Below are positions 17,324 through 32,867 of a stretch of 64,000 nt of DNA, piece after piece. Origin of the DNA: a virus (taxonomy: Duplodnaviria; Heunggongvirae; Uroviricota; Caudoviricetes); the IMG/VR virus record IMGVR_UViG_3300021387_000074; one strand, given 5' to 3'. The position numbers were made by a program, and so were the translations under genes. The notes beneath the pieces are model-generated. The model was given only the letters and a program-made list of their open reading frames with translations, was not told where the DNA came from and made no database searches. Each line of letters opens with the position of its first letter. Position 1 is the stretch's first letter.

Positions 17324-17328
17324 ATAAA

Positions 17329-17360: not shown

Positions 17361-17944
17361 CAAAACAAAATACAAGTTTTTCTACATTATCACTTGATAT
17401 TTTCTCCTGAAGACTCAGCAATATGTTTACACATAAAGACTGTGTGCTGTTTATGAGTAGTTTTAGTTGTCTTTGTAAATACTGTTGTAAACATATTCTT
17501 TTCTCCTATAAAATTAACTTGTAAGTGGGCGATAAGAAGTGACTTCTCAATTTTCTCATTCTTGTTTGCTCGCGACGCAAGATTCCATTTGATATGGAAG
17601 GCCCTTAAGCGCATTTCTGCCACGAGAAAACCGAAAAGCCAATTCACTTTTAAGGTCTTCAACCGCCATTTCTAGACAATGACAACCACAATTCACCGCC
17701 TATTCAGGTTGTCATAAGATGTTATACTCAGGGTCTGCTAAAAGACGGCAACCGACTATCCAATAAAAGTCAGATAGCACTTTATTTGTATAACAAATTC
17801 GATAACTTAATCAACTAGCCCTCGGAAATCGGGTCGTAAATCCGAAACGTTAGCCCCTAAGGCTACTGTGTTACTCTTACACCATTTCCTTCTTGTCGGG
17901 AGCCTATCCCCGCAATACTTCTTTACTAAGTTATCTAGCAAGGT

Positions 17945-18020
17945 CTCGGGTGACCGAATCGAACAGTCCCGATGTCCAGCTTATGAGGCTGGTGAGCCAC
18001 AACCAGTGCTCCAACCCGAA
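17945..18020 (-). tRNA. tRNA-Met/Ile2 (CAU)
   Basis: Anticodon arm CCAGC-CUCAUAA-GCTGG. D-stem GAGC/GCTC. T-arm GACTG-TTCGATT-CGGTC. Confidence 0.6.
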
Positions 18021-18107
18021 ACGAATAAATTCTTTATGTAATTATCTTATCATAAAGAATAAAATTTGTCAAGCGATGTGTTTACCCAATCGCTTAATGG
18101 GTTTAGT

Positions 18108-18182
18108 CGAGGTCGCAGGAGTTGAACCTGCCTGAACCAACTACCCTTTCAACACCTTATCAGAGTGAGGGGATACACCTCG
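18108..18182 (-). tRNA. tRNA-like element (anticodon not resolved)
   Basis: T-arm GCAGG-TTCAACT-CCTGC and a 6-bp acceptor pairing. The interior could not be folded canonically by eye. Confidence 0.35.
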
Positions 18183-18481
18183 GAAGGAAAGTCCTGTGTG
18201 GTGAAACTTACAGTATACCTTTATCATTTTCTGGCTTATCCCTTAAGGGTTTGCGTAAGCCTTTATTTAGGTGGCATGAACGTTATCCGCCGACAACTTC
18301 CACCACTACCTTTAATCAGGGTAGCATATTCGTATAATTCATCAACTACTTTAACGCGCGTAATTTTAGTTGATTACTCCGAATAACTTTTGTGTAGGTA
18401 ATTACGCTTTAAGAAAAACTCCTACACGCGTTTTTCTCTGCGTAGCATTTAACCTTGCGTAAGGTGGATTTTCTCCCGATT

Positions 18482-18553
18482 AGTTCTTGCGGGGATCGAA
18501 CCCACTCCTCCACCTTGAAAGGGTGGCGACTCAACCTTTTTGTCCTAAGAACC
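18482..18553 (-). tRNA. tRNA-Glu (UUC)
   Basis: Anticodon arm CCACC-CUUUCAA-GGTGG. T-arm GTGGG-TTCGATC-CCCGC. Acceptor GGTTCTT/AAGAACT. Confidence 0.6.
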
Positions 18554-18648
18554 ATATAGCAGGCAAGTTATGGTTAAAGGTCGCGGGTTTATCACAACCA
18601 ACTTGCCAGGAAACCCATGCTGCATAATACGGACTGTTATTGTCCTTT

Positions 18649-18731
18649 GGATTAGGTCGGACTCGAACCAACATTCCTACGCTTTCCACTGTGGGCTTTA
18701 ACGTAGAGCCTAGCCATTAACTGACTAACCC
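18649..18731 (-). tRNA. type II (long variable arm) tRNA, anticodon undetermined
   Basis: Acceptor GGGTTAG/CTAATCC pairs fully. T-arm GTTGG-TTCGAGT-CCGAC. The 83-nt length implies a long variable arm. Confidence 0.45.
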
Positions 18732-19049
18732 ATAAAAATTTGGCAACTTTACCGAATTGTAATTTGCCGAAGGTCTTGCCTACCTATCGTTAAAGTAGGA
18801 ACGCTAACAGAGATTTGTGCGTTAGCCACTAGAAGCTGAATCGTTTTATAAAATAATGGTTTTACGGTAACCAGCCGCTTACACTGACGTTGGAACAACC
18901 AATTCCTCCGAAGTGTTTCTCGATTACACATAACGCACTGCTTCGCTAGGGCGCGGCTTGCTTTCACCACCTAAACAAGCAAAGGGTTTCTTAGGTTATA
19001 CAACCACAAGTATTTTTGGTTAAAGGAACCTCGTTTTCCTTATGACTTA

Positions 19050-19078
19050 ATTTTACCACGAAAGTAAAATTTTGTCAA
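19050..19078 (-). promoter_or_regulatory. sigma70-type promoter inside the tRNA region (minus strand)
   Basis: The minus strand reads TTGACA, then a 17-nt spacer (aaattttactttcgtgg), then TAAAAT. Confidence 0.5.
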
Positions 19079-19082
19079 TAGC

Positions 19083-19154
19083 AGGCGGTGCCCGATTCGA
19101 ACAGGCGTCCAACGGATTTGGAGTCCGTGATTTTAGCCGCTAAACTAACCACCT
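19083..19154 (-). tRNA. tRNA-Trp (CCA)
   Basis: Anticodon arm ACGGA-CUCCAAA-TCCGT. Acceptor AGGTGGT/ACCGCCT. T-loop TTCGAAT. Confidence 0.7.
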
Positions 19155-19265
19155 ATAATTAACCCAAACCACCGAGTTAGCGCTACCACGGATTTACGGT
19201 TTTGTATGAGCACTGCTATTCATCATAGCTTCCTATAAAGCGCATCTCTCATACTAAGGTTTAGA

Positions 19266-19337
19266 GCACCATCACGGATTCGAACCGAGGCTTTCTGCTT
19301 GGAGGGCAGACGTGCTAGCCGCTAACACTAATGATGC
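19266..19337 (-). tRNA. tRNA-Gly (UCC)
   Basis: Acceptor GCATCAT/ATGGTGC. D-stem GTGT/GCAC. Anticodon arm TCTGC-CCUCCAA-GCAGA, with C at position 33. Confidence 0.55.
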
Positions 19338-19519
19338 ATAATTGGCGGAGTGTATAACTCTTTTTTTCCTAAAAAATTTTAAATAGGAACACTCTTTGCC
19401 ATACGGAAGCGGCGAGTCCCGACCTCGCATTTCCCGAAGGAACCCAACTTAGCAGGCTGGTGGTTTTGCCAATTCACCCACACTTCCAAAAAGTGGGTTA
19501 GCACGTATCCACTTTATTG

Positions 19520-19650
19520 TTGACGTCATTTTAGGACTCGAACCTATTTGTGCTAACCCTAGCATTGTTATGTCTCCTCATAACAAAAGTGGACACAGGC
19601 AGCATCGAACTGCTTCTATTCCGCTGTGCAAGAGCGGCGAGATGCCAAAC
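19520..19650 (-). ncRNA. unresolved tRNA-like region with two T-arm motifs
   Basis: GGTTCGAGTCC and AGTTCGATGCTGC motifs, plus hairpin GTTATG-AGGAGA-CATAAC. No canonical cloverleaf could be assembled. Confidence 0.3.
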
Positions 19651-19837
19651 CTCCCCAGGCCCATAAAAAAGGTGTTCGGGTTTATCGTCGCAGACGTCAT
19701 ACGACTAGTTAGTTTTGTTCCGTTTGCACTCCTCGATGTTATTACTGCCGAGTGTAAACGTATCGGTTCAGTTTGCCCGAAAAGATCTAACATACTTCAT
19801 TAACCAAACGCCCCGAACTGTTACGCTTGGATTTAGT

Positions 19838-19910
19838 GGAGCGGGGGAGCATCGAACTCCCAACCTCATGATTGCAAATCACGTATTCTAGCCAATTGAA
19901 CTACCGTCCC
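19838..19910 (-). tRNA. tRNA-Ala (UGC)
   Basis: Anticodon loop UUUGCAA. G3:U70 identity pair present. T-arm GGGAG-TTCGATG-CTCCC. Confidence 0.7.
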
Positions 19911-20058
19911 ATAAATGGTCGGTGATTTTAAGGGCTCACCTTTTGTCAGCATATAACCTTCTGACGCATCCTCTCGGAAAATACCCAGGCAACGTACCTA
20001 CAGTATATGACTTGTAGGGGTTTTGTTCAACTTACTGAACCTGCCCAATAAAGCTTGC

Positions 20059-20145
20059 GGAGTATGCAAGACTCGAACTTGCGCCACGCTCATCGCATGT
20101 CAACGGTTTTCAAGACCGCCCGTATAGCCGCTAACTCAATACTCC
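20059..20145 (-). tRNA. tRNA-Ser (UGA), type II
   Basis: 87 nt. Acceptor GGAGTAT/ATACTCC. Anticodon loop CUUGAAA. Long variable arm. T-arm GCAAG-TTCGAGT-CTTGC. Confidence 0.65.
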
Positions 20146-20153
20146 ATAAAAGT

Positions 20154-20223
20154 CTGTATGGTAGGACTCGAACCTACGAAGCCTTGTTCCCAAAACAAGT
20201 GGATTAACCGCTCTCCCACACAC
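20154..20223 (-). tRNA. tRNA-Pro (UGG)
   Basis: Anticodon arm CTTGT-UUUGGGA-ACAAG. T-arm GTAGG-TTCGAGT-CCTAC. Confidence 0.65.
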
Positions 20224-20358
20224 AGATAAAAGTTGTTAGATCGCCGCGCAGCACAACCAAAGATTGTACATTAGTGTCCTTGCGGATTACCAATCTTCTT
20301 TATGGATATCTTTCGATAGGTCTTATCTAGGCACCCTTCCATAAATAAACAACTTAGC

Positions 20359-20428
20359 GGGCTAGGCAGGAATTGAACCTGCGTCCACGGATTAACAGTC
20401 CGCTGTATAACCATTTTACTACTAACCC
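20359..20428 (-). tRNA. tRNA-Asn (GUU)
   Basis: Anticodon arm GCGGA-CUGUUAA-TCCGT. T-arm GCAGG-TTCAATT-CCTGC. Confidence 0.6.
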
Positions 20429-20438
20429 AAATTTTAGT

Positions 20439-20522
20439 TGGCAGGGAGGGACTCGAACCCCCAACGTTTCTGATGTCACGGATTTACAGTCCGCTGCCTT
20501 CAGCCATTCGGCACACCTACCA
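20439..20522 (-). tRNA. tRNA-Tyr (GUA), type II
   Basis: 84 nt. D-arm TGCC-GAATGGCTGAA-GGCA. Anticodon loop CUGUAAA. Long variable arm. Confidence 0.65.
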
Positions 20523-20531
20523 ATAAGTAGC

Positions 20532-20603
20532 GGGATATGCGAGAATTGAACCCGCGCTCTCCTGAGTGACAGTCAGGCGTATGCACCATTTTACCAATAT
20601 CCC
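20532..20603 (-). tRNA. tRNA-Asp (GUC)
   Basis: Acceptor GGGATAT/ATATCCC. Anticodon arm CCTGA-CUGUCAC-TCAGG. Confidence 0.65.
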
Positions 20604-20613
20604 AAATGTTAGT

Positions 20614-20693
20614 CGGCTCGGAGAGACTCGAACTCTCACGTCAAAGACACATGATCCTAAGTCATGCGTGGCTGCCAATTACACCACGAGCCG
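20614..20693 (-). tRNA. tRNA-Leu (UAG), type II
   Basis: 80 nt. Acceptor CGGCTCG/CGAGCCG. Anticodon arm CATGA-CUUAGGA-TCATG. 13-nt variable arm. Confidence 0.65.
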
Positions 20694-20702
20694 AAAATAA
20701 AA

Positions 20703-20733
20703 AAGGCTTCTGATTTGTGTCAGAAGCCTTTAT
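20703..20733 (-). terminator. hairpin plus U-run upstream of the tRNA array (minus strand)
   Basis: The minus strand reads AAAGGCTTCTGACACAAATCAGAAGCCTTTTTTATTTTCGG. Confidence 0.5.
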
Positions 20734-20883
20734 ATAATAAACTCAGCTTCCGTCACGTTCTTGGATCATAGGCAGGTTCATACGATACGCCACTATTAAG
20801 TGTTGCAATAATGAGAGAATCTGCACTGTAATTATTCCAAGAATTTTTCATTTTGTTTTCCTTTTAATTTAACTTGTGACTAT

Positions 20884-20912
20884 ATTATAAAACACAAATT
20901 AATTTTTGTCAA
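20884..20912 (-). promoter_or_regulatory. sigma70-type promoter for the 20915..21682 gene
   Basis: The minus strand reads TTGACA, then 17 nt, then TATAAT (from + strand 'attataaaacacaaattaatttttgtcaag'). Confidence 0.55.
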
Positions 20913-20914
20913 GA

Positions 20915-21682
20915 TTACTTTCTTAATAAGAAAGCTCTCATCCATTTTTCAACGATTGTTTCTTCATTTTTTCTGAACCAATCGAGCAACTGTTTTTCGT
21001 TTTTGAAATCAAGCGGAATAATTCTACTTCTAAACAAAAACCCAAACAAATCCCAATTAGAAAGACTAAGAAAATAACTTTTTCGTTTCCACCAATGAGT
21101 TATCTCCCAACCTTCTTCGGGCTTATATTTTGGAGGATAAATCTCAGTAGTTATATACTTCTTTTCTTCTTTGCGTTTACCCGCAAATCCAGAATTCCAA
21201 GGCATATAAAAACCATAGTTTACTTTTTCTATAACTACTCTTTCAAGAACTATTGTATAAAGTGGCTTATCTTCATTATAAACCAAATCAACATAATCCT
21301 TATATTTTTCCCAAAGAGGGCGATGCTTAACACCATATCTATAATCTAGACCAAAAATTTCTTTTTCAAAATTTCTGCGGTATTCATCTTTGCCGCCCCA
21401 ATAGTAATTTCCCCCATCTGATGCCCAACCCCATTTATCAGCAAATCTCAAAGAATAATCAATGTTTTCGTTAATAAACTTTTCTTCAGGCTGAACACCA
21501 TCTTTTGTGCAAAGAAAACAACGATCATCATAAAGAACTTCTTTAATGATAGTACCTTCCATTTCTTTACACAATCTCCTATCCTTCTGTCTGCGTTCTT
21601 TGTGATACTGTTGGCGACACCATTTATCGCCTCTAGATTTGCAAATAGAATGATAAGGTTTTTTCTTAAAGCTTCTACTCAT
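20915..21682 (-). CDS. hypothetical protein (basic, Trp-rich)
   Basis: 255-aa ORF with promoter and RBS upstream. Confidence 0.5.
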   Translation of the reverse strand: MSRSFKKKPYHSICKSRGDKWCRQQYHKERRQKDRRLCKEMEGTIIKEVLYDDRCFLCTKDGVQPEEKFINENIDYSLRFADKWGWASDGGNYYWGGKDEYRRNFEKEIFGLDYRYGVKHRPLWEKYKDYVDLVYNEDKPLYTIVLERVVIEKVNYGFYMPWNSGFAGKRKEEKKYITTEIYPPKYKPEEGWEITHWWKRKSYFLSLSNWDLFGFLFRSRIIPLDFKNEKQLLDWFRKNEETIVEKWMRAFLLRK

Positions 21683-21800
21683 ATTTTTCTCCTAACTAAT
21701 TTAAGTTAGAATATTGTATACTTCATAAGAATCTCCTTTATTCTTTCTAGGAACGTGAAATAATCTTCACGCAAAATTTCCTCTTGCAACCTCGTTCTAC

Positions 21801-21860
21801 AGTCAGGACTCGAACCCGATCCAAAGACCATGCAGGTCTGTGTGCAACCGTTACACCTCT
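21801..21860 (-). ncRNA. degenerate tRNA-like fragment
   Basis: GGGTTCGAGTCC T-arm motif, but no matching 5' acceptor strand within 90 nt. Confidence 0.25.
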
Positions 21861-21866
21861 GAGATT

Positions 21867-21936
21867 TCTTCCGCGAGGACTCGAACCCAGCCTGCAAGAT
21901 CCAAATTCTTGAGTGCGACCGCTACACTACGGAAGA
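21867..21936 (-). tRNA. tRNA-Gln (UUG)
   Basis: Paralog of the Gln(CUG) gene. Acceptor TCTTCCG/CGGAAGA pairs perfectly. Anticodon arm CAAGA-AUUUGGA-TCTTG. Confidence 0.6.
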
Positions 21937-21946
21937 ATAAATTAGT

Positions 21947-22027
21947 CGGCAAGGTGGGATTCGAACCCACACGTCCGAAGACAACTGATTTTGAGCCAGC
22001 CAAGACTACCAATTCCATCACTCACCG
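21947..22027 (-). tRNA. tRNA-Leu (CAA), type II
   Basis: 81 nt. T-arm GTGGG-TTCGAAT-CCCAC. Anticodon loop CUCAAAA. Variable arm GTCTTCGGAC. Confidence 0.55.
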
Positions 22028-22267
22028 AAAAGAAGGGCGTTTAATACGCATTCTCTAATAATGCAGTTGCCCTTCGCCCAAGTATTTATAGTGCGTCGTG
22101 GCGATACACTTGAAAAGATTTTATGTTGTTCTTTTCATCAACATCAAAATTATAACACGAAGTCATAATTTTGTAAAGGGATGGGCTACCACCCAACCTC
22201 CACCACCTAGTTTCATTAATGTTTCTGAGAAGGAAGCTTCAAAAAACTAGGAAACAAATACCTTAGT

Positions 22268-22340
22268 GGAGCATATCGGAATTGAACCGATGTCCAAACA
22301 ACTTCTTATATTAAACACGTCTTTACAAGCTTAAGTCATT
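22268..22340 (-). ncRNA. tRNA 3'-half-like element (T-arm ATCGG-TTCAATT-CCGAT plus acceptor strand), no 5' partner found
   Basis: The + strand carries 'ggagcatatcggaattgaaccgatgtcc'. The 5' acceptor complement is absent from the following 300 nt. Confidence 0.25.
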
Positions 22341-22866
22341 TGCTTTTCGGTAAGTGCAAATAACAAAACTAATAGATTTTAATTTTCGTTGGTAAGCACT
22401 GAATCTCCAAAAGTTCAAACCAACTATCAGATGGTGACACTTAGACCGAAATATCTGAGTCATTCGCTAAGTGCTTACGCAACCATTGCGTAAGAATCTT
22501 CGAAATCTTCGTCGATTATTTTTTTGCTATATTAAGGTTAGCAACCTTTGCTTGATGTTTAATTCTTCCGTTGCTGTCGAAACCAAGAATGCCCCATAAG
22601 AATCATTGTCCATTTACCACTTGCGGACTACAAGGTAGCCAAGCCAGGCTCAACTTAAAGCTCTAATCTTAGGCTTTTGTTTTCGCTTGATGATTTATTA
22701 TACTACTTTTTTAACTTTTTGTCAAGGGTTGTTTTAGCGGTTTGGTAATCATCATAAAACTCATACTGTCCACCGTAGTGATAACAAACCAAATACTTTG
22801 TAGGAGTTCTCCACAATTCCCAAACACCCTTTTGTAATAAAAATTGCCATCCCATAAGATTAACTC

Positions 22867-23598: not shown

Positions 23599-24624
23599 TT
23601 ACTCCTTAAAATAAGTATTATAAACATAATCAGCGATGTCAGGGAAAACTTCTTTAATTTTTATCATTTTCTCTGCCTCTGAATAGTCAGCTCCAAGTCC
23701 GCCAAACACACTTTTAAGATTACCAACCTTCCTATCAAACTGTTTAAGTTTTCTATTAAAGTCAGCAATAGTTAAAGCTGTTGGTGGATTCTGTGTATCG
23801 AACACTTCGAACACATCATGGTTTACAGAATCACAAAGAATAACAATATCTTTGTCTTTGTTTGTAATTGCTTCATAGTCACCCATGCAACAATACTCTG
23901 TATGACCAACTACCTGCTTAGGGAAATAAGGTTCTTTTATTAAACTGTTTGGTCTAATCCATAAACAGAACTGAGAAACCTCATCGCCACTTCCACTAAA
24001 GCAACCATCCCAATCAAGTTTTTCCTCAAACCCATTTGAGAAGTTTTCATCGCCTGGAATATGACTTCTTTCATGCCAACACTTATTAAGTGTTTCAACA
24101 GAGAATAAATTCTGATCCCATTCTACAACATCTTTGTAGAGTTCTTTGAAGTAAGCGTCTGCTTCTTCTTTAGATTCAAACTCTGTTCTATCTGCTTTTG
24201 GATAAACAGTATAAATGTCTCCCATAATTTCTTTCATATAAGAAACGGCAGTCTTTGAAAAACCTGCGTGAGAGAACACCCAGCCATCACATTCAAAAGC
24301 AAGATCGATTATATCCATATTTGCCATAAGTAAGGCGCGGATAACACTTATTTTACTGTTTTGATGTCCACTACAATTTGAGCCATATCTTGAGCCACTA
24401 ACATAACTCCAATCATGGTTACCAATTAAAAGTATTACTTTATTAGGATACTTTCTTTTGAATCTACAGATCGTCTGAAAGTTCTCACCCTGGTCATCCC
24501 ATACATTTTCCCAAGCATCAAAATAGTCACCAAGGAAAACTACAAAATCAACCTCATCAATTTTCTTCTGGGCAATTTCCCAATTATGACTACCATGAAC
24601 ATCGGGAATTATTAAAATTTTCAT
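23599..24624 (-). CDS. calcineurin-like metallophosphoesterase (candidate RNA 2',3'-phosphatase of a repair module)
   Basis: 'IIPDVHG', 'FLGDYFD', 'GNHDW' motifs. The likely start MKIL overlaps the ligase stop as ATGA, with an AAGGA RBS upstream. Confidence 0.65.
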   Translation of the reverse strand: MKILIIPDVHGSHNWEIAQKKIDEVDFVVFLGDYFDAWENVWDDQGENFQTICRFKRKYPNKVILLIGNHDWSYVSGSRYGSNCSGHQNSKISVIRALLMANMDIIDLAFECDGWVFSHAGFSKTAVSYMKEIMGDIYTVYPKADRTEFESKEEADAYFKELYKDVVEWDQNLFSVETLNKCWHERSHIPGDENFSNGFEEKLDWDGCFSGSGDEVSQFCLWIRPNSLIKEPYFPKQVVGHTEYCCMGDYEAITNKDKDIVILCDSVNHDVFEVFDTQNPPTALTIADFNRKLKQFDRKVGNLKSVFGGLGADYSEAEKMIKIKEVFPDIADYVYNTYFKE

Positions 24625-25838
24625 TTTATCAAATCCTTGTATACTGAACAATACATTTCATAACCCTTAGACTTTTCTTTCCAAGAATCCCAAAGTTCAT
24701 TTAAGTATTCATTAGAATCCTTACCGTCTGCAGCCTTGAAATATATTGGTCTCAAAGATGGTGGAACCTGAGAAGTTACCCACAAAGCAAATTCTTTACG
24801 ATTTTTCTTGTAATCATTCTCCCAAACATCTTTTGCATAATCCATTGTAGAAATAAACTCTCTCTTAAAGACTTTAATTTCTGCAACCTGCTTATCTGTC
24901 TTTTCCTTCAACTCAGGGAAATCATCATGGCTTTCAGTAATGCACAAACGCCAAATACCTTCAGGGGTATCGTGGTCGCGAATATACTTCAAAGCCAAGT
25001 AAGAAGGACACTTCATTTTTACACGAGTCCAATTCTCTTCGTCTACTACAACAAAACCTTCCTGGTTTTTTCCGCTGAACTTTTCAAGTGCGGCGAGAAT
25101 ATCTTCCTTCTTCTTCAAGTCGTAATAATGTGGAGTGTCATAAGGCAAACCAAACATTTTTATTACTTCTCTTGGGTCGTGTTCAATACCTTCTGCATCA
25201 CGAGCACCATGGAACCAAAGTTTTGTTTCTGTATATTCGCAAATGATTTTATTCTGTGGCGAAGTAAGTTCAAACATTAAAGTCCAACCATCAGGAATTC
25301 TTGAAACCCAATCCATTTCACAATGGAAGTAGTTCTTATCTGCATCCCAAACAGTTGCGCCTGGAGCATCTTTTGTTAATGCTTTTGTCATCAATTCCTG
25401 ATAACAATGAACATCTTCTGTTTCATAATCAATTGGAGTATAAAGTCCAACACCACCATTTGTTACCCAATAATCTGCCCCTTTATATTTGAACATCTTA
25501 ATAAGCTGTCCATCTATTTTTTCGGGAACAAACAAAAATTTTGAATCCCAATTTATTGTATCAGCATGTCCGTCGTTGATGTCAAAGAATTTCAAATAAG
25601 GAGCACAAATAACATTTACAGTTCCATCTTCAAGAACTTCAACAACTGTTCCGCGGCACTGCTTAACAATTTTATCTGAAAGGTCAGATTCTATAAGATC
25701 ATAAACCAGCATCCACCAATTTGGATTGTTAGGAAACTGTGTTACAGAACGTAAGCAATAAGGCTTCTTCTTTAATTTGTCCTGCCAATTCTTTAGGTTC
25801 TTTCTAATAAAGTTCTCAAGTTCTTCAAAGTTTTTCAT
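24621..25838 (-). CDS. RNA ligase (Rnl1-like nucleotidyltransferase)
   Basis: Motif I 'EKIDGQL' (KxDG), motif IV 'EGFVVV', motif V 'RVKMK'. The likely start MKNFEEL has an AAGGAG RBS 8 nt upstream. Confidence 0.7.
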   Translation of the reverse strand: MKNFEELENFIRKNLKNWQDKLKKKPYCLRSVTQFPNNPNWWMLVYDLIESDLSDKIVKQCRGTVVEVLEDGTVNVICAPYLKFFDINDGHADTINWDSKFLFVPEKIDGQLIKMFKYKGADYWVTNGGVGLYTPIDYETEDVHCYQELMTKALTKDAPGATVWDADKNYFHCEMDWVSRIPDGWTLMFELTSPQNKIICEYTETKLWFHGARDAEGIEHDPREVIKMFGLPYDTPHYYDLKKKEDILAALEKFSGKNQEGFVVVDEENWTRVKMKCPSYLALKYIRDHDTPEGIWRLCITESHDDFPELKEKTDKQVAEIKVFKREFISTMDYAKDVWENDYKKNRKEFALWVTSQVPPSLRPIYFKAADGKDSNEYLNELWDSWKEKSKGYEMYCSVYKDLIK

Positions 25839-25856
25839 TGTTTTGCTCCTTATACT

Positions 25857-25915
25857 AAAATTATACCACGAAAGCAAAAAAAAGTAAAGCCCATCTACTG
25901 TTAGGTGGGCTTATT
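25857..25915 (-). terminator. conserved terminator-promoter cassette (copy 1)
   Basis: + strand reads 'aaaattataccacgaaagc-aaaaaaaagtaaagcccatctactgttaggtgggctt'. On the minus strand this is hairpin, then TTTACTTTTTTT, then TGGTATAAT. Confidence 0.6.
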
Positions 25916-25950: not shown

Positions 25951-26310
25951 TTACATTGTTGGATCGACTATGTAAGTACAGTCGTTGATAAGACCGTTTA
26001 CCTTTTTGAAAATAAATCCATCTGGATTTTCTTCTTCATCAAAATCCATCATTCCCAAAGCTTCATCTAAAGCTTCTCCAATTGCTTCTTCTACACTCGC
26101 TGCAGTTGTTGTTGGACTAAGTATTGCACTATCGCCATCACCAATATATTCATAAACGCCATAGCGATAGATTGTTTTATCCAGTCCTTCTACATTTACT
26201 TCTTCAATGGCGATATATGCATCACCATTGTCAGAGCCATCTGAAAAACGGAATTCTCCTTCTGTTTCCAAAACTTCTACGATTTTATCTATGAGTTCTT
26301 TTCTGTTCAT
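25951..26310 (-). CDS. hypothetical acidic protein
   Basis: 119-aa ORF. Confidence 0.45.
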   Translation of the reverse strand: MNRKELIDKIVEVLETEGEFRFSDGSDNGDAYIAIEEVNVEGLDKTIYRYGVYEYIGDGDSAILSPTTTAASVEEAIGEALDEALGMMDFDEEENPDGFIFKKVNGLINDCTYIVDPTM

Positions 26311-26318: not shown

Positions 26319-26828
26319 CTAGATAATGTTACACTGGCAGCACTTCATAACGTCAAGTGCGGCTTTGTGTGTTTCAGGTGAGAGTCCTGCACAAGCATTT
26401 GCGATTACGTTTACTTCTACACCTTCAATCTGTTTAAGAGCGAGTGCGTTTGAAACAACACAAATGTCTGTACAAGTACCACACATTGTTACTTCATCAC
26501 CTGGCTGAACATATTCAGTCCATTTGTCTGAACCGAAATGTTCCTTTGGAAGAACGATTGCTTCATTAGCCAAATCCTGGAGATCTTCAATGATTCTCCA
26601 ACCGTCTGTACCTTCGATACAGTGTTCAACTGGCAGATGCTTTCCTTCTCCCGTTTTCATATAGTCATCGTAATGTGTATCAAGGGTGAAAATCAACTTT
26701 GCCCCATCAGCCAAAGCCTTTTCAGCTGCTTCCTTAATGTTAGGAATAATAGCAACAGCGGCATCGTTTTTTAATGCGCCTGTGAAAAAATCATTTTGAC
26801 AATCCACGATTACAAACCATTTAGTCAT
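26319..26828 (-). CDS. pncA: nicotinamidase/isochorismatase-family hydrolase (PncA-like)
   Basis: 'FVIVDCQNDFFTGAL' vs E. coli PncA 'LLVDLQNDFCAGGAL'. 'HCIEGTDGW' vs 'HCVQNSEGA'. 'TMCGTCTDICVVSNALALKQIEGVEVNVIANACAG' vs 'VMGLATDYCVKFTVLDALQLGYKVNVITDGCRG'. Confidence 0.75.
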   Translation of the reverse strand: MTKWFVIVDCQNDFFTGALKNDAAVAIIPNIKEAAEKALADGAKLIFTLDTHYDDYMKTGEGKHLPVEHCIEGTDGWRIIEDLQDLANEAIVLPKEHFGSDKWTEYVQPGDEVTMCGTCTDICVVSNALALKQIEGVEVNVIANACAGLSPETHKAALDVMKCCQCNII

Positions 26829-27453
26829 GCTTAGCCTCCATCAGACATTGTCTTAAAACAACATCTTTATATTTTTCTTTGTTTCTGTTTTTTCTACCCT
26901 GAAGGGCAGAATATGTTAATGTGTCTCCAACTATTGGATCCACACAAAGTTGCTTTCTTAAATCTTTTAAATTACTTGCTGACTTCTCGCAGTATTTTTT
27001 ATAAGTTTCATTGTTTTTTCTTTTTTTATTATATTCCTTAAAATAAGCAATAGAGTTTTCTCTGTTCTCTAATCTTTTTTGAGCAATTTGCTCTTTATGG
27101 TTTTCTCGATATCTTTTGCTAGTTGCTTTTTTAAGCATCTTTCTTTCCCATTCGCTTCTTACGCGATTTTTATTATAGCAACCACCAAGAGAAATATTAT
27201 AACCAAAATCTCTATCATATGAATGATAAAGTTTAATATAAAACATTTCTCTTTCATTAAGACTTTCCAAGCTGCATTCTTCCAAGACATAAAAAGAAAA
27301 GTTGTCGACTCCATAAGTTTCAAAGTCTTCTTTCAAAAACCTATTAGCATTTCCCCATTTCTCTGCTTGCCATCTTTTAGGAATGTCGTTAGATTGTCCT
27401 ATATAAACTTTACCGCTTACTTTGCTTTGAATACAATAAATACCACTAATCAT
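26821..27453 (-). mobile_element. GIY-YIG homing endonuclease gene (free-standing HEG)
   Basis: 'GIYCIQSKVSGKVYIGQS...R...E' GIY-YIG core with a basic C-terminal DNA-binding tail. Inserted between pncA and nadD. Confidence 0.7.
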
Positions 27454-27483
27454 ACAATTAACTTGTCATTCTGCGTATCAACA

Positions 27484-28077
27484 TTAGTATTTATAATTTT
27501 CAAGTTCATCTTCATAACCTTTACAGAACGAAAGGTCATCCATCATTTCGTCGAAGTCATCATAAATTTCCTTTCTGATTTCTTCGCGAAGCTTTGTTGA
27601 AGAAACATCAAGATCGATATCGCTTACATAATCATAAGCAATATCTTCAGGGAAATTATCTTCAAAACCTGGTCTACGGAAAACAATAAGTTTTGCTCTC
27701 TTGAGAATTTCTTCCCAATCACACCAAGTTTTGAATTTCTGAAAACTGTCAGAACCCATAGCGACGTAGTATTCATAGTCATCGAGAGATGACATAAATT
27801 TACCACTTGAAACTTTTCGCAGAGTATCTACGAAACGCCAACTGTCTCCAACATCTCTTTCAATGTCGGATACTTCTACGTTCTTAAAGCCAGCACAAAG
27901 CTGCTTTACTCTCTCGAACCTTTCGTTGAAGGAGAACATCTGAGTATTCTTCTTGTAATAACGAATGGTTGTAGGAACTACAATTACTTTATCAAACTTC
28001 TCAGACAGACGTTTAATAATTTCGATATGACCCTCATGACAAGGGTCAAAGCTTCCGCCATAGATTGCAATTCTCAT
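27484..28077 (-). CDS. nadD: nicotinate/nicotinamide mononucleotide adenylyltransferase (NadD/NMNAT-like)
   Basis: 'IAIYGGSFDPCHEGHIEI' matches the GGxFxPxHxGH nucleotidyltransferase motif. Size is 197 aa. Confidence 0.7.
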   Translation of the reverse strand: MRIAIYGGSFDPCHEGHIEIIKRLSEKFDKVIVVPTTIRYYKKNTQMFSFNERFERVKQLCAGFKNVEVSDIERDVGDSWRFVDTLRKVSSGKFMSSLDDYEYYVAMGSDSFQKFKTWCDWEEILKRAKLIVFRRPGFEDNFPEDIAYDYVSDIDLDVSSTKLREEIRKEIYDDFDEMMDDLSFCKGYEDELENYKY

Positions 28078-28137
28078 AATTACCCCTTAATCTTCTTGAT
28101 AATACAATTATACTACCAAGAAGAAGATTTGTAAAGA

Positions 28138-28503
28138 TTAGTAATCGCAGTCAAATACTGCTTTAATCTTAGAACTGTGGCAAAGACAGAAAGCGCCGTT
28201 CTCACCATTAGAGATCATCTGACAATCGTAATCATCAATTACAACTTTGTCTCCAATCTTGAATGCTGGGTCTTTTACTTTGTCGCCAATACTCTTAACA
28301 ACAAAATATTTTACGATGAGCTTTCCGCTTTTATTTGGATTGTTTACATTCTGTCCAGTAGCCTTTACTCCTGGCATAATCAAACCACTAGCAGTTTTTT
28401 CTACTTTTGATTCTGCAGGGACAGCTTCGCAAACTACCCATTCACCCATTGCTGTAATGTCTTTAATTGTTTTATCACTCATTGTTTTTTCTCCAATGAG
28501 CAA
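28138..28503 (-). CDS. GroES/Hsp10-like co-chaperonin
   Basis: Mobile-loop-like 'EKTASGLIMPG' and 'FKIGDKVVIDDY' resemble the GroES 'KSAGGIVLTGS' and 'VKVGDIVIF' segments. Confidence 0.45.
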   Translation of the reverse strand: MLIGEKTMSDKTIKDITAMGEWVVCEAVPAESKVEKTASGLIMPGVKATGQNVNNPNKSGKLIVKYFVVKSIGDKVKDPAFKIGDKVVIDDYDCQMISNGENGAFCLCHSSKIKAVFDCDY

Positions 28504-28520
28504 ATTATAACAATAGTATT

Positions 28521-28973
28521 TTAAATGTCAAGTGCTTCAAAGCCATTCTTTACTTCGCTTAAGTTACAGAACGCATTATCGAAGTCTTTTGAAACTGAAT
28601 CAACGATAAGCTGATAATCTGCATTTTCAATAGCGTTATTAAGAGAGTCCTGAACTGTTTCGAATTCGTCTACCACTTCCTTGAGATGTGTTACCATCTT
28701 ATCGACTTTACGAAGTTTGCTATTTGCATCTCCTAAATCGCTTTCGAGATCATCATAATCATTGCAACGACAATAATCATAAGGACAAGAGTTGCAGTCG
28801 ATTTCATCCTGGAGATTACAGTTTTCTACTTTGAGCTCTTTAATCTCTTCTTCAGGAGCAATTTTTGAAGTATTCCAACACTCTTCAAAGAGAGCCTTAT
28901 ATTCGTCGGGAATTTTCTTTTCTGACCTTGCGTTATGAATAGCAAACCACTGTTCAAATGTTGATGGAGCCAT
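28521..28973 (-). CDS. hypothetical protein (Cys-containing, acidic)
   Basis: 150-aa ORF. Confidence 0.45.
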   Translation of the reverse strand: MAPSTFEQWFAIHNARSEKKIPDEYKALFEECWNTSKIAPEEEIKELKVENCNLQDEIDCNSCPYDYCRCNDYDDLESDLGDANSKLRKVDKMVTHLKEVVDEFETVQDSLNNAIENADYQLIVDSVSKDFDNAFCNLSEVKNGFEALDI

Positions 28974-29275
28974 TAGAGCACCTCCCTAAAATCTTTTATA
29001 TACCGATTTTCTGCGGCGTAAATTTCTGTTTTAATTTTTATAGGTTCTTCTTCATTAGGAAACGCAAGAGCTTTTTTTTCTTCTTCACCTAAAATCTTAA
29101 AAACTAAAACCCAAACATTTTTAAATCTTGGGTCTTTAACTACCGCAACTTCAGTAATATGATTTGTATTAAAGCCAACCATGTTTACTTCATTCAGGTC
29201 AAAAGTTTCTGTTTCTTCTTCAAATGAATAAGAAGGTATATCAATAAACATAATTACCCCTGCAAATAATCCCAA
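28973..29275 (-). CDS. hypothetical protein
   Basis: 100-aa ORF. Confidence 0.4.
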   Translation of the reverse strand: MGLFAGVIMFIDIPSYSFEEETETFDLNEVNMVGFNTNHITEVAVVKDPRFKNVWVLVFKILGEEEKKALAFPNEEEPIKIKTEIYAAENRYIKDFREVL

Positions 29276-29490
29276 ATACTCTGACCAAGTTTGTCTTCGT
29301 CGGGAATTTCAATTTTGTCGGAATCAAAATGTTCAATAAGATGCCAAATAGCACTTACTGCGTCATTAAGATCTTCATAATCATTTTTTATTTTTTCAAT
29401 TTCTTTATCAAACTCTCCACGAGTTTCAGAATTGATAAATTCAACTTTAAGGAATTCGCTTTCCCAGCCCCAATCAGAATTACTTGCCAT
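29254..29490 (-). CDS. hypothetical protein
   Basis: 78-aa ORF. Confidence 0.4.
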   Translation of the reverse strand: MASNSDWGWESEFLKVEFINSETRGEFDKEIEKIKNDYEDLNDAVSAIWHLIEHFDSDKIEIPDEDKLGQSIWDYLQG

Positions 29491-29575
29491 TCTGAACCTC
29501 CATAAAAACTAAAATAGCATAAGATTTTCCATCTTACGCTATAATTATATCACGAGGACAAAATTTTGTAAATTA

Positions 29576-30367
29576 TTACAACCCGAAATTTATTTTCTTA
29601 AAATAATTTGGAAGCTCTGGGTCAAAATAAGGGATCTGAATAATTCTTATTTTATAAATTTGTTGATCATGAAGTTTTTTGATTTTATCAAAATGTTCAC
29701 CCTTAACTTCTGCACGAATAAACTCGTTTACTTCGTGATAAGTAAAGCCGAGTTTGTCTTCGTCAGAACTTCCACACATTCCATCAGAAGGTGTCTTATG
29801 GACAAGTTCTTTTGGCAACTCAAGATAATCACCAATAGCAATAACTTCTTCAGTTGTGAGTTTGCTGATTGGAGCAAAGTCGCCAGCAGAATCACCATAG
29901 AATGTAGAGAAGCCTACCATATCTTCAGAAAGATTACAAGTGTTTGCTACGCGGCAGTTGCCGATTGTTGCGGCTACACCATAGAGTGTGACCATTCTTA
30001 AACGAGCTGGGGTATTTGTCTTGTATTGATAAGTAGGGAACTCTTTTCCGTTCTCAGAAACAACGCGCATCTGTTCTGTGAGTCCTGAGTAAGCATTGCA
30101 AATGTTAATGCAATAACTCTTAATTCCAAGATGTTTAATAACAGCATCAGAGTCAGCAATATCTGACTGAACACCGTTAGGCATCTGAACACCGATAACA
30201 CGATCTTTGCCAAGTGCTTCAACGCAGAGTGCGGCTACAACAGATGAATCCTTTCCACCTGAAATACCAATTACCGCTTTTGTATTTTCATCACCGTTCA
30301 AAGAGAACCAGTTACGAATCCAATCAATACAATTCTGTGTGTGTTTAACAACATTAAAACCGCTCAT
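29576..30367 (-). CDS. nadE: NH3-dependent NAD+ synthetase
   Basis: PP-loop 'GISGGKDSS'. 'ARLRMVTLY'. 'GFSTFYGDSAGDFAPISKLTTEEV...HKTPSDGM', typical of NadE. Confidence 0.85.
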   Translation of the reverse strand: MSGFNVVKHTQNCIDWIRNWFSLNGDENTKAVIGISGGKDSSVVAALCVEALGKDRVIGVQMPNGVQSDIADSDAVIKHLGIKSYCINICNAYSGLTEQMRVVSENGKEFPTYQYKTNTPARLRMVTLYGVAATIGNCRVANTCNLSEDMVGFSTFYGDSAGDFAPISKLTTEEVIAIGDYLELPKELVHKTPSDGMCGSSDEDKLGFTYHEVNEFIRAEVKGEHFDKIKKLHDQQIYKIRIIQIPYFDPELPNYFKKINFGL

Positions 30368-30606
30368 TATATTTCCTCCAACTCAAAGTTATAAAGTGAT
30401 TTTCTGATATTACCAACATACCCGCTAAATTCAAATTTGTGTCCATCATCTTCATAAGAGATGTTAAGACCGTTCCAAGGATGCATTTGAATTGTGAGTA
30501 TATCTCCTTCGTTAAGTCTTTCAAAGTTTCCCGAAATCTTTGCTTTCTTTCGTTCAACTACTCTGTACTTCTTTATGAAATTGTCTAAAACCTCATCTCC
30601 ACTCAT
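30367..30606 (-). CDS. hypothetical protein
   Basis: 79-aa ORF. Confidence 0.4.
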   Translation of the reverse strand: MSGDEVLDNFIKKYRVVERKKAKISGNFERLNEGDILTIQMHPWNGLNISYEDDGHKFEFSGYVGNIRKSLYNFELEEI

Positions 30607-31193
30607 TAAATACCTCCGAGGTTTAATAATTTACTTTTGTATTCTGCCCAAGCATGCTTCATCATAATAGAAGTGTCGGAAGAACTCATTATGTTTTCAA
30701 CCTGAGAGTCTGAACGATAGCGTACTTCAATAAATTCATTTTCATCGAGTTTCTGCTGCTGCCTACAAGAGCCTTCTACTTCTATATAATAACAAGTCAT
30801 TTTATTATCCATAAAAGCAGGGTTAGGATTTGATTCATAAAGTTTTCTTATTTGAAGGATTTTATTTTTATCCAGCCCAATCTCTTCTTCGCATTCGCGA
30901 AGAATAGCATCAAGTGGGCTTTCACCTTCTTCAACCATTCCGCAAGGAAATTCTTCCATTACTTTATCTACACCGTGGCGATACTGAGCAGTCATTACAA
31001 ACCTTTCGTTGTAATCTGCGCAAGTTCTTGTAACAATTGCAGATACCCAGTTTGGTGCTTTTATTTTTACATAAGTACCATTCTTTCCATTTGGTGCTTT
31101 TTTATTTTCATTCACAACATCAAAGATTGGTGTGTGCAGCATTGTCTGAGGATCGTTCCAAGATTCAAATTTTAATTTACTATCGTCTGCCAT
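30606..31193 (-). CDS. Nudix hydrolase (candidate ADP-ribose/NAD-related pyrophosphatase)
   Basis: Nudix box 'GMVEEGESPLDAILRECEEEIGL' (GX5EX7REUXEEXGU). Confidence 0.75.
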   Translation of the reverse strand: MADDSKLKFESWNDPQTMLHTPIFDVVNENKKAPNGKNGTYVKIKAPNWVSAIVTRTCADYNERFVMTAQYRHGVDKVMEEFPCGMVEEGESPLDAILRECEEEIGLDKNKILQIRKLYESNPNPAFMDNKMTCYYIEVEGSCRQQQKLDENEFIEVRYRSDSQVENIMSSSDTSIMMKHAWAEYKSKLLNLGGI

Positions 31194-31201
31194 ATTTTCT
31201 C

Positions 31202-31621
31202 CTAAAAATGATCTACATATTGCGGATTTATTTCTCCAAGTCTTTTGTTTATTTCTTTTATAAATTTATCAATAAATTCTTCATCTTCATTTTCGTTTTT
31301 AATGCTAAATGCATAAGGGTTCTCGTCGTTGATAAACCAAACATGGACTTTTATTCTGTCATTTTCTGTTGCGTAGTCGACTTTCACTATTGTTTCTATG
31401 TTTATATAAATTTTAGTGTGATCACCACTTAATCCAAGAAATTGCTTAGTATTCTCATTCTCAAATAAAGCTATAAGTTCATCTCTTGAGATAAAATCAA
31501 AATCGACATAACTTAATTCTTTACTACCTATTGTGGTATAATCGAATTCTTTTTCTTCTATACTTATATAAGCAACATTTTTAATATTTAAGTAAGTGTC
31601 TTCTTTAATTTTTACTAGCAT
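31202..31621 (-). CDS. hypothetical protein
   Basis: 139-aa ORF. Confidence 0.45.
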   Translation of the reverse strand: MLVKIKEDTYLNIKNVAYISIEEKEFDYTTIGSKELSYVDFDFISRDELIALFENENTKQFLGLSGDHTKIYINIETIVKVDYATENDRIKVHVWFINDENPYAFSIKNENEDEEFIDKFIKEINKRLGEINPQYVDHF

Positions 31622-31637
31622 TTCTTACCCCACGCAA

Positions 31638-31695
31638 AAATTATACCATAAAAGCGAAAAAAAGTAAAGCCCACCAAATAGGTGGGCTGTTAAAG
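31638..31695 (-). terminator. conserved terminator-promoter cassette (copy 2)
   Basis: + strand reads 'aaaaattataccataaaagcgaaaaaaagtaaagcccaccaaataggtgggct'. Confidence 0.6.
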
Positions 31696-31706
31696 CAGCT
31701 GCTTAA

Positions 31707-32867
31707 TTAAACAGTTGCTCCATATTTTCTTGCAAATTTAGCACTGTCTCTACTCTTGATTTCAGCACCAATGATTTCCATATCTTCTTCATGGAGGTCG
31801 TCATCAAAGTTTTGTTCTTCTGCAGTTATTTCATCTGCGGTAAGATTATTTGTAAGATAGCTGCTGATTTCAGCATCTTCGTCAATACTGTATCTGAAGT
31901 GCTCAGGTACACCGAGATTCATCAAACGTTCTCTTTCTTCTGACTTCTTACACTTGAGAGAAGCCCATCTACCATCAATCATACAATCTCGCTGACAACA
32001 ATCGTGATAAACGATAGTTTCACTATTCTTAAACTTGATGAAGATGCTTACATTAAAGTTTTCTTCTTCTTCGGCTTCAACATTGAAGTAAGTGATTGCT
32101 TCACTTGGAGTCATATCTGGGAAGTTGTTAAGTTCTTCAACGAATGAAGAAAGAATATCCATAGATACGAACTTCTTACTACCAAGAGTTTTTACAATAT
32201 CTTCTGTGAGTTCTTTTCTTACGAGATTATCAGCGCAGTATGCTCTTACAACATTTGCATTTTCTGAAGTAAATTTGTAGTGATAGCGAATACGTCCTGG
32301 TCTTGATTTCAAGTTTTCATCAAGCTTCCAAACGTTATTTACTGTGAGCAAGAACAAGTTGCCAGCGCAGCCGCTGTTTCCATCCAATACAGAGAGAAGT
32401 GTTTCCTGCTTTGTCTGGTCATCTTCATTATCGCCACCATTGGCATTACCGCCCATAAACTTTTCAAATTCATCCATAAAGATGACACAATCTTTTATGT
32501 TCATAAGGAAGTCAGGCAGTCCTGGCAAAAATTCAGAAACAACAACAATTGGCTTCTTTCCGTTAAGCTGCTCCATTACAAGACGAGCAGTAAGTGTCTT
32601 TCCAAGTCCTTTGTCACCTGACAAAAGAACACCAAGGTTTTTGTCGGCTTTGTTCTTGCCATAAGCTTCTACAATATGGCTTGCAACATTTTGAGAATTT
32701 CCATAAATCTTTCCGTGAGAAAGTTTTACTTCTGTTTCTTCCAAATAACAGCCGATGAATTTGTTAAAACAAACCTTCCAAGTTCCCATCGGGACTTCTT
32801 TTCCAAATGTCAAATCAGATTCTTCTGCGTCAAAGAATCTAACCATGTTTTCAGTTCTTAACCACAT
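31707..32867 (-). CDS. AAA-family ATPase of unknown function
   Basis: Walker A 'GDKGLGKT', Walker B 'VIFMDEFEKF'. Confidence 0.6.
   Translation of the reverse strand: MWLRTENMVRFFDAEESDLTFGKEVPMGTWKVCFNKFIGCYLEETEVKLSHGKIYGNSQNVASHIVEAYGKNKADKNLGVLLSGDKGLGKTLTARLVMEQLNGKKPIVVVSEFLPGLPDFLMNIKDCVIFMDEFEKFMGGNANGGDNEDDQTKQETLLSVLDGNSGCAGNLFLLTVNNVWKLDENLKSRPGRIRYHYKFTSENANVVRAYCADNLVRKELTEDIVKTLGSKKFVSMDILSSFVEELNNFPDMTPSEAITYFNVEAEEEENFNVSIFIKFKNSETIVYHDCCQRDCMIDGRWASLKCKKSEERERLMNLGVPEHFRYSIDEDAEISSYLTNNLTADEITAEEQNFDDDLHEEDMEIIGAEIKSRDSAKFARKYGATV

Follow-up and report, generated by a model that had tools for sequence, protein, structure and literature searches.

An Rnl1-type RNA ligase gene overlapping a metallophosphoesterase gene, and a stand-alone polynucleotide kinase gene, as candidate members of a dispersed phage RNA repair set

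The DNA analysed here, called the window below, is the whole 64,000-nucleotide stretch of the virus record IMGVR_UViG_3300021387_000074 (Caudoviricetes), and the genes in question are those of a possible RNA repair set: an Rnl1-family RNA ligase, a metallophosphoesterase that we call MPE1, a stand-alone polynucleotide kinase and a second metallophosphoesterase, mpe2. The window has a G+C content of 37%, and 88 of its 90 open reading frames (ORFs) of at least 60 amino acids (aa) are on the minus strand, including those of the ligase, MPE1 and the kinase (Table 1). A preliminary description, which was made from the sequence alone, had reported an Rnl1-like ligase with nucleotidyltransferase motifs I, IV and V, a calcineurin-like phosphoesterase whose start overlaps the ligase stop, a kinase about 15 kb away and a very large tRNA array, and all of these were recovered in our analysis. 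The kinase is 15.3 kb from the ligase start, and ARAGORN found 30 tRNA-type genes (two with irregular anticodons) and a transfer-messenger RNA (tmRNA) in the window; the tmRNA and most of the tRNAs were confirmed by Rfam. The ligase, MPE1, mpe2 and the kinase each belong to a recognisable enzyme family and have intact catalytic residues, and the matches on which the gene assignments rest greatly exceed chance.

Table 1. Positions of the genes and other features of the window discussed in the text.
Feature	Position	Strand	Remarks
Rnl1-family RNA ligase gene	24621..25838 (ATG 25838, TGA 24621)	minus	405 aa; predicted sealing enzyme
MPE1, metallophosphoesterase gene	23599..24624 (ATG at 24624)	minus	341 aa
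ATGA overlap, ligase stop/MPE1 start	24621..24624	minus	sequence read directly (...gat aaa ATG Aaa att...)
Upstream control region of the ligase-MPE1 pair	25846..25910	minus	consensus matches only
Hairpin and T-run upstream of the ligase	25910..25876	minus	
Promoter-like TTTACT-17-TGgTATAAT upstream of the ligase	25888..25860	minus	10/12 matches, with TG (promoter scan)
AGGAG ribosome-binding site of the ligase	25850..25846	minus	7 nt before the ATG
Stand-alone polynucleotide 5'-OH kinase (predicted)	41178..41678	minus	166 aa, without phosphatase domain
mpe2, aq_1665/COG4186-like metallophosphoesterase	11537..12238	minus	233 aa; Pfam Metallophos, phrog_547
Array of 23 tRNA genes and tmRNA	16569..22595	minus	directly downstream of MPE1; ARAGORN, Rfam
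tmRNA	22264..22595	minus	tag peptide DEDFEDSYAMVA; ARAGORN, Rfam
Full-length ROOL RNA	46612..47180	minus	Rfam RF03087, 270 bits, model 1-574 of 574
NAD+ salvage cluster	26319..34480	minus	directly upstream of the ligase; genes at 26319..26828, 27484..28077, 29576..30367 and 33239..34480

The TGA of the ligase gene (24623..24621) shares bases with the ATG of MPE1 (24624..24622) as ATGA, and from this overlap the two genes are judged to be translationally coupled. The hairpin, promoter-like match and ribosome-binding site upstream of the ligase make the pair look like a two-gene unit of its own, although each is no more than a match to a consensus, and the promoter scan gave no more promoter-like sites in this region than expected from shuffled sequence. 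No nucleotide match to the region was found among GenBank phages. The slot upstream of the ligase is filled by an acidic 119-aa ORF (25951..26310) in the window and by an HD_4-domain protein (3225..3758) in a homologous locus, L279. Kinship of the HD_4 gene with the 119-aa ORF, or with the HD domains fused to kinases that are described below, was rejected, as only the HD motif is alike.

The ligase scored 48 against Pfam RNA_lig_T4_1 (1.8e-12), above the gathering score of 28.3, and matched phrog_562 (RnlA) with 3.5e-41 over profile positions 9-363 of 377. Against NCBIfam TIGR02308 (4.8e-17, profile span 51-330 of 373) it reached 62.1 bits, far below the equivalog cut-off of 242; therefore, it can be regarded as a member of the family, but a divergent one. 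It is about 25% identical to the ligases of cultured phages, and its only significant matches in the PDB were T4 Rnl1 entries (2c5u, 5tt6 and 9do4, about 1e-9), with an alignment that reaches T4 residue 323. The motifs I (EKIDG, K107), III (FELTSP, E190), IV (EGFVV, E260 and G261) and V (KMK, K274 and K276) are present, and in an alignment of nine ligase family sequences (27-73% identity) the residues R62, K83, F84, K107, D109, G110, E190, E260, G261, K274 and K276 were invariant. In the alignment with T4 Rnl1, K107/D109/G110, E190, E260/G261 and K274/K276 face T4 K99/D101/G102, E159, E227/G228 and K240/K242, and these positions, like R62 and K83/F84, correspond to residues that are essential in T4 Rnl1. 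The ligase segments QCRG and KFF align with ECRG and KFF of T4. Profile and PDB alignments showed that the protein carries the N-terminal elements specific to Rnl1, represented in T4 by Arg54, Lys75 and Phe77, and a C-terminal region of the Rnl1 type, not an OB or Rnl2 C-domain. The concern that it might group with DNA ligases or capping enzymes received no signal, since neither these nor PF09414 were matched in the Pfam scan, and the assignment stands. It is thus predicted, with a confidence close to certainty, to be an active Rnl1-type RNA ligase.

The kinase has the P-loop GVPGSGKST at residues 7-15 and matched AAA_33 of Pfam (2.6e-18), the polynucleotide kinase family phrog_505 (1.8e-12) and phrog_8238 (9e-11). 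As a single sequence it gave weak matches in the PDB, and a profile of 26 homologues (157-201 aa long) matched the kinase domain (4gp6) of Clostridium thermocellum Pnkp (CthPnkp) with E=8.2e-21 over positions 4-157 of 159. The same profile matched Capnocytophaga Pnkp1 (1.8e-12), L-seryl-tRNA(Sec) kinase (4e-12), T4 Pnk (2.4e-9) and mammalian PNKP (8e-7). G10, G12, K13, S14, D31 and R34 are invariant in the 26 homologues, the lid arginines R112 and R123 are nearly so, and the conserved residues align with the CthPnkp segments SSDFCRG and RNKNRTDR; the catalytic Asp-x-x-Arg pair corresponds to D35/R38 of T4 and D38/R41 of Cth. The nearest relatives in cultured phages are the N-terminal kinase part of a Twort-type 754-aa protein that is annotated as an RNA ligase and whose central part is a PPP-like phosphoesterase. 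The protein is very likely to be an RNA/DNA 5'-OH kinase, and by these comparisons it is of the bacterial Pnkp type, not specifically T4-like. The preliminary description had likened it to the T4 Pnkp kinase domain; as a genuine polynucleotide 5'-kinase this held, but the protein is closer to bacterial Pnkp than to T4 Pnk (8.2e-21 against 2.4e-9).

The link between kinase and ligase was examined in the neighbourhoods of homologues, using two sets of 80 phage loci, one collected with the ligase family (Rnl1 loci) and the other with the kinase family (kinase loci). A Pnk-like kinase is encoded within 8 kb of Rnl1 in 54 of the 80 Rnl1 loci, and 44 of these 54 kinases are kinase-HD fusions, usually the next gene after Rnl1. 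From the other side, an Rnl1 gene lies within 8 kb in 12 of the 80 kinase loci. Kinases of the window's own family are found 0.6-3.7 kb from Rnl1 in three loci: in L011 the kinase is 47% identical to that of the window and is separated from Rnl1 by one tRNA gene, in L166 it is 46% identical at a distance of 3.7 kb, and in L165 it directly follows a CYTH-like gene, which itself follows the ligase. The contexts of three kinase homologues were uninformative, that of L011 excepted. As kinase-Rnl1 linkage is common in phages, the 15 kb between the two genes in the window is no argument against a shared pathway, and the kinase and ligase are likely to act in one heal-and-seal pathway. The same 15 kb, the fluid gene order of these phages and the PHROG family name 'RNA ligase and tail fiber protein attachment catalyst' would also suit a set of independent accessory genes without joint function, in which the ligase has another role, such as tail-fibre attachment, as T4 gp63. 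We consider this very improbable in view of the fully conserved catalytic residues of the ligase, the linkage of kinase and Rnl1 in the majority of the Rnl1 loci and the translational coupling of the ligase with MPE1. As a separate observation, the Rnl1 gene of L011 (6114..8095), which adjoins the kinase, is split over three ORFs, being interrupted right after motif I (KRDG, followed by C...) by an intein-like insert (ending in ...HN, followed by C).

MPE1 matched Pfam Metallophos with 2.5e-10, in agreement with its first description as a calcineurin-like phosphoesterase. A search for homologues found 797, and among the matches listed these were 255-361 aa long and none was fused to another domain. 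The PPP-like set of metal ligands (D-x-H, G-D, G-N-H, H and G-H) is present, the ligands D8, H10, D33, N69, H70, H119 and H241 are invariant, as is the phosphate-binding His of GNHD, and the family has invariant motifs of its own, SGHQ and WIRP, with an insert (about 60 residues) and, at the C-terminus, a helical extension that is about 55 residues long. MPE1 is a binuclear metallophosphoesterase of the PPP-like clade (lambda-phosphatase/ApaH/Shelph/CthPnkp) with this extension, and it shares the clade with the sole metallophosphoesterase proven to heal RNA 3' ends, without specific closeness to it. Sequence and profile searches with MPE1 against PDB sequences gave nothing significant, including the CthPnkp phosphatase, and PADLOC returned a weak, partial match to PDC-S10 (2e-5), which covers the N-terminal motifs only.

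Based on these assignments, the phage could possess a T4-style RNA repair set ('heal and seal') whose genes are dispersed. Cutting of a tRNA (or the tmRNA) would leave a 2',3'-cyclic phosphate and a 5'-OH; the stand-alone Pnkp-type kinase would phosphorylate the 5'-OH; a metallophosphoesterase, for which MPE1, sharing its predicted transcript with the ligase, is the likeliest candidate, would convert the cyclic phosphate end to a 3'-OH; and the Rnl1-family ligase would adenylylate the 5'-phosphate and seal the nick. The second phosphoesterase, mpe2, may share or take over the 3' step. As the kinase has no phosphatase domain, it and the Rnl1 ligase need a separate enzyme for the 3' end. Pfam scans, which covered most of the window's ORFs of 60 aa or more, detected no HAD, HD, 2H, cREC, KptA, Sir2 or RtcB protein, no second ligase and no Hen1-like methyltransferase; MPE1 and mpe2 are therefore the only candidates for the 3' step in the 64 kb. 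The enzymatic activities, the RNA substrate and a counter-defence purpose are what we infer from these families and their surroundings. That such a set, made up of the kinase, MPE1 as the likeliest 3' healer and the Rnl1 ligase, repairs cut RNA is a reading to which we give an evenly balanced probability, and for MPE1 as the 3'-healing partner the odds are likewise roughly even. Of the RNA repair module that was originally proposed, the ligase and kinase assignments stand and are joined by the kinase-Rnl1 linkage, but the role of MPE1 as the 3' healer is not established.

Several observations, which are given in this and the following paragraphs, weigh against MPE1 as the healing enzyme. The arginine of the GDxxDRG motif is absent, the motif being GDYFDAW, and across the family its position is mostly occupied by Ser or Ala, occasionally by Cys or Thr and never by Arg; this arginine, R53 of lambda phosphatase and R237 of Cth, binds the scissile phosphate. 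In a fold search the best match of MPE1 was a protein-tyrosine phosphatase (1v73), followed by ApaH (13.5), calcineurin/PP5/PP1 (about 12.5-12.9), the CthPnkp phosphatase domain (12.2) and lambda phosphatase (12.0), and the MPE1 profile matched a NinI-like Ser/Thr phosphatase with E 2.4e-10, against 2.6e-4 for a Pnkp-like fusion. The active site can also be read in another way. The opening of 2',3'-cyclic phosphates is an activity of CthPnkp as well as of lambda phosphatase, and the histidine of GNH(D/E) is one of its determinants (PMC2190708; PMC3675462), and the CthPnkp mutant R237A kept its cyclic-phosphodiesterase kcat when the monoesterase activity was abolished (PMC3675462). As loss of the arginine spares the diesterase and abolishes the monoesterase in CthPnkp, MPE1 is predicted to be a competent diesterase and a doubtful monoesterase.

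The neighbourhoods of MPE1 homologues speak on both sides. MPE1 adjoins Rnl1, or is at most three genes from it, in five lineages with MPE1 identities of 50-97%: it directly follows Rnl1 in the window, the near-identical L001/L002, L279 (77% identical) and L007 (50%), and Rnl1 is two or three genes upstream of it in L281 (57%) and L006 (58%). The order of NAD genes, Rnl1, MPE1 and tmRNA/tRNAs is kept in L006 and L007. In the window MPE1 fills the slot directly after Rnl1 that is taken by kinase-HD fusions in 44 of the 80 other Rnl1 loci. On the other side, no Rnl1 was found within 5-8 kb of MPE1 in L018/19, L020/23, L280 and L282 (54-57% identity), 64 of 66 viral loci of the MPE1 family had none nearby, and all 33 bacterial loci, from rumen Treponema, had neither ligase nor kinase nearby. 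There is no MPE1 beside the ligase of L003 (61% identical to that of the window), MPE1 and Rnl1 are 20-50 kb apart in two huge contigs, and the 60%-identical ligase of L165 has HAD-like and CYTH-like proteins and the kinase as its neighbours, with an MPE1 homologue about 50 kb away on the same contig. When the genes around eight distant viral MPE1 loci were classified by Pfam, no partner recurred; they included one PF09414 ligase, which was not placed by a motif search. The Rnl1-MPE1 linkage is real but lineage-limited, being present in about half of the closely related phage lineages, and either a common function or a gene order kept by descent could account for it. For annotation, this means that adjacency to an RNA ligase alone is insufficient for calling a metallophosphoesterase a healing enzyme. 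A 211-aa ORF between the ligase and MPE1 in L006 was considered as a GIY-YIG-like homing endonuclease and rejected, as it had no similarity to the window gene of that type.

The gene mpe2, which the preliminary description had missed, is a serious candidate for an alternative or additional 3'-healing enzyme. In 14 of the 80 kinase loci (L100, L124, L134, L143, L144-L146, L150, L152, L153, L157-L159 and L161), a gene of the mpe2 type overlaps a Pnk-like kinase gene or directly adjoins it, and the type occurs in 8 of 80 Rnl1 loci, compared with 2 of 80 for MPE1. It is therefore the mpe2 type, not MPE1, that is the habitual phosphoesterase companion of Pnk-like kinases, and the two form a recurrent, split 'kinase-phosphatase' cassette in uncultured phages, sometimes with an RNA ligase next door. 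The cassette is complete in L143 (phosphoesterase-kinase-Rnl1); in L100 the order is kinase-kinase-phosphoesterase, followed by a 486-aa ORF that resembles an RNA ligase by appearance only. In addition, the window covers 64 kb of a genome that is probably larger than 200 kb, and another healing enzyme may lie outside it. An arrangement in which the ligase and kinase repair RNA, the 3' end is healed by mpe2 or by a protein encoded outside the window, and MPE1 acts on another substrate is thus possible, if short of probable. The translational coupling of MPE1 with Rnl1 and their near-adjacency in five lineages, down to 50% identity, argue against it, and so do the lack of linkage of mpe2 to the kinase or ligase in the window and the mixed contexts of mpe2 in cultured phages, where it is in a DNA replication/Mre11 module in Bacillus phages and among unknown genes elsewhere. 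Also conceivable is a two-step scheme in which MPE1 opens the cyclic phosphate and the resulting monoester is taken off by mpe2, given that MPE1 lacks the monoesterase arginine of CthPnkp; this scheme fits all the data and is speculative.

Other observations were made on genes of the mpe2 type. In L003/L164 and L165 a fusion of the phosphoesterase with a deoxyribosyltransferase-like domain is encoded within a few kb of the ligase gene (13994..15019 in L165). The ligase region of L165 (6750..10500) encodes a HAD-like protein (LFLDIDGVLN), Rnl1, a CYTH-like protein (MEVETKY...) and the Pnk kinase, where HAD and CYTH were recognised from motifs by eye; the HAD and CYTH genes that flank this ligase were absent from the window and from all the other loci. 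In the window, two genes downstream of mpe2, a 337-aa protein (9996..11009, minus strand) has a C-terminal GGDEF (diguanylate-cyclase-like) domain (7.9e-23).

If mpe2 or an outside protein were the healer, MPE1 could, equally tentatively, act on a phosphoprotein, Np4N or a signal derived from nucleotides or ADP-ribose, as mobile-element cargo that merely lies beside the ligase. Its best fold and profile matches, which are protein phosphatases, would fit such a substrate, and so would its position at the edge of the NAD+ salvage cluster and its distribution. The family occurs in huge phages of the rumen and gut and in mobile elements of Treponema, its bacterial members being almost confined to rumen and gut Treponema. 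There, in conjugative-element-like settings that lack ligase and kinase, the recurrent neighbours are other metallophosphoesterases, a YAcAr SLOG protein and HTH, PIN and STAND proteins. A role of MPE1 in NAD metabolism was rejected as a general explanation, as no NAD genes were found near MPE1 homologues outside the window's clade, which also counts against this view of its substrate. In L008-L010, L254, L263, L271 and L272 (Treponema and related contigs), MPE1 is accompanied by two further metallophosphoesterases and a YAcAr SLOG-family protein, with ParB, relaxase, restriction-modification, PIN and STAND genes nearby. Homologues of mpe2 are near MPE1 in five bacterial loci and in L008-L010. 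This set of MPE1, phosphoesterases and YAcAr may be an uncharacterised phosphoesterase module of mobile elements.

Returning to the repair set with MPE1 as the 3' healer, its closest functional model is the pair of Rnl1 (gp63) and Pnkp (PseT) with which T4 answers PrrC. The catalytic residues of the ligase are the same and its C-terminal region matches, the kinase has a P-loop and the Asp-x-x-Arg pair, the heal-then-seal logic would be shared and the genes are unlinked in both genomes. In contrast to T4 Pnkp, the window kinase lacks the HAD-type (DxDxT) 3'-phosphatase domain, and the 3' step that a DxDxT acylphosphatase performs in T4 would here fall to a metallophosphoesterase; the ligase also differs from T4-type ligases in its low identity and in falling below the NCBIfam equivalog cut-off. 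With CthPnkp and the Twort-type kinase-phosphatase-ligase fusion (phrog_8238), the kinase is a likeness, its best solved relative being the CthPnkp kinase domain. The same three activities as in CthPnkp are predicted, with the metal ligands and phosphate-binding His kept in MPE1. However, three genes encode them here in place of a single polypeptide, the ligase belongs to the Rnl1 type and is not a Pnkp ligase module, and MPE1 has no equivalent of Arg237 and no sequence-level match to the CthPnkp phosphatase.

The bacterial Pnkp-Hen1 logic had also been invoked for this locus. The kinase and the clade of MPE1 do recall bacterial Pnkp, but this is an analogy only, as there is no fusion, the ligase is of another family and Pfam scans of the window's ORFs found no Hen1 methyltransferase; TIGR04075 matched the kinase only, with 24 bits against a cut-off of 750. 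The commonest arrangement among the uncultured phages here, Rnl1 with a kinase-HD fusion, which we take to resemble the Pnk of Rhodothermus phage RM378 and the HD-Pnk of Runella, is alike in having an end-healing gene right after Rnl1. It differs in that its phosphoesterase is an HD domain fused to the kinase, whereas the window kinase is solitary and distant and the neighbour of the ligase is a metallophosphoesterase. Finally, lambda phosphatase (NinI), the Shewanella cold-active protein-tyrosine phosphatase and ApaH have GDxxDRG where MPE1 has GDYFD(A/S)W, and MPE1 differs from them in its SGHQ and WIRP motifs, its insert and its helical extension.

The purpose of the set would, by analogy with T4 and from the neighbouring tRNA, tmRNA and NAD+ salvage genes, be to counter host defences that cut tRNAs. 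The tmRNA/tRNA array next to MPE1 is the likely substrate context, and the NAD+ salvage cluster, which is a complete Preiss-Handler set (nicotinamidase-like isochorismatase, NadD/NMNAT-like cytidylyltransferase, NAD synthase and nicotinate phosphoribosyltransferase), probably counters NAD+-depleting defences. To our knowledge, T4 is the only phage whose Rnl1 has an established biological role, namely the repair of host tRNA cut by an anticodon nuclease. An unlikely alternative is that the enzymes serve the phage's own RNA metabolism by joining or maturing its tRNAs, tmRNA or ROOL RNA, for instance once these had been cut in a programmed way or had lost introns. In its favour, the tmRNA/tRNA array lies right next to the ligase-MPE1 pair, the kinase is surrounded by many tRNA genes in three lineages, the anticodon loops of several tRNA-like genes are irregular, a full-length ROOL RNA is in the second tRNA cluster, and fungal tRNA splicing is carried out by ligases of the Rnl1 family (Trl1; PMC6379707). 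Against it, neither tRNA introns nor a splicing endonuclease was detected in the window, the established role of T4 Rnl1 points to host tRNA, and such sets are treated as counter-defence in published surveys (PMC7824862).

The jumbo-phage surveys report Rnl1 and Rnl2 ligases, polynucleotide kinases and phosphoesterases together with large tRNA sets and NAD+ salvage, and occasional calcineurin-like phosphatases are already described in RNA repair sets with Rnl1 and Pnk (Iyer et al. 2021, PMC7824862; Iyer et al. 2022, PMC9503650). The passages of these surveys considered here mention neither this particular MPE1 family nor a translational coupling of it to Rnl1 (PMC7824862; PMC9503650). The repair set itself is therefore an ordinary, already described kind of phage tRNA-mending kit, in which a part for MPE1 is plausible. 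If it works as proposed, this would be another large phage that insures its translation against tRNA-cutting host defences, and the gain would be incremental, as the strategy is documented for T4 and inferred for jumbo phages. It would also provide a biochemical role for an uncharacterised phosphoesterase family and a repair pathway split into single-domain proteins. It is more doubtful, though conceivable, that MPE1, as a family of about 800 arginine-less lambda-phosphatase-like enzymes, acts in partnership with Rnl1 as a stand-alone RNA 2',3'-cyclic phosphodiesterase of a new kind. If this is true, the set would be a fully split version of Pnkp with three or four proteins, in which MPE1 and mpe2 share the 3' work.

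Further observations concern the RNA genes. A perfect TTGACA-17-TATAAT promoter match (22697..22725) precedes the tmRNA, and the tmRNA of L006 is at the same relative position. The ROOL RNA is inside the second tRNA cluster and adjoins tRNA-Arg(tct) (46521..46595); its presence, combined with that of homologues in Treponema, suggests the rumen or gut as the source. Unusual tRNA-like genes are found on the minus strand at 45535..45607, 48363..48434, 48837..48913 and 61600..61670, and the unusual anticodons or loops among such genes include Asn-att, Cys-aca, a 4-base 'gtaa' and a 2-base 'ca'. Weak Rfam tRNA matches at 42967..43049 and 18648..18731 were missed by ARAGORN.

The NAD+ salvage cluster accompanies Rnl1-MPE1 in L007 and L279, and the window also encodes a NUDIX protein. 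Between the nicotinamidase and NadD-like genes is a GIY-YIG homing-endonuclease-like gene (26821..27453, minus strand), which overlaps the nicotinamidase gene by 8 nt and is also present in L279.

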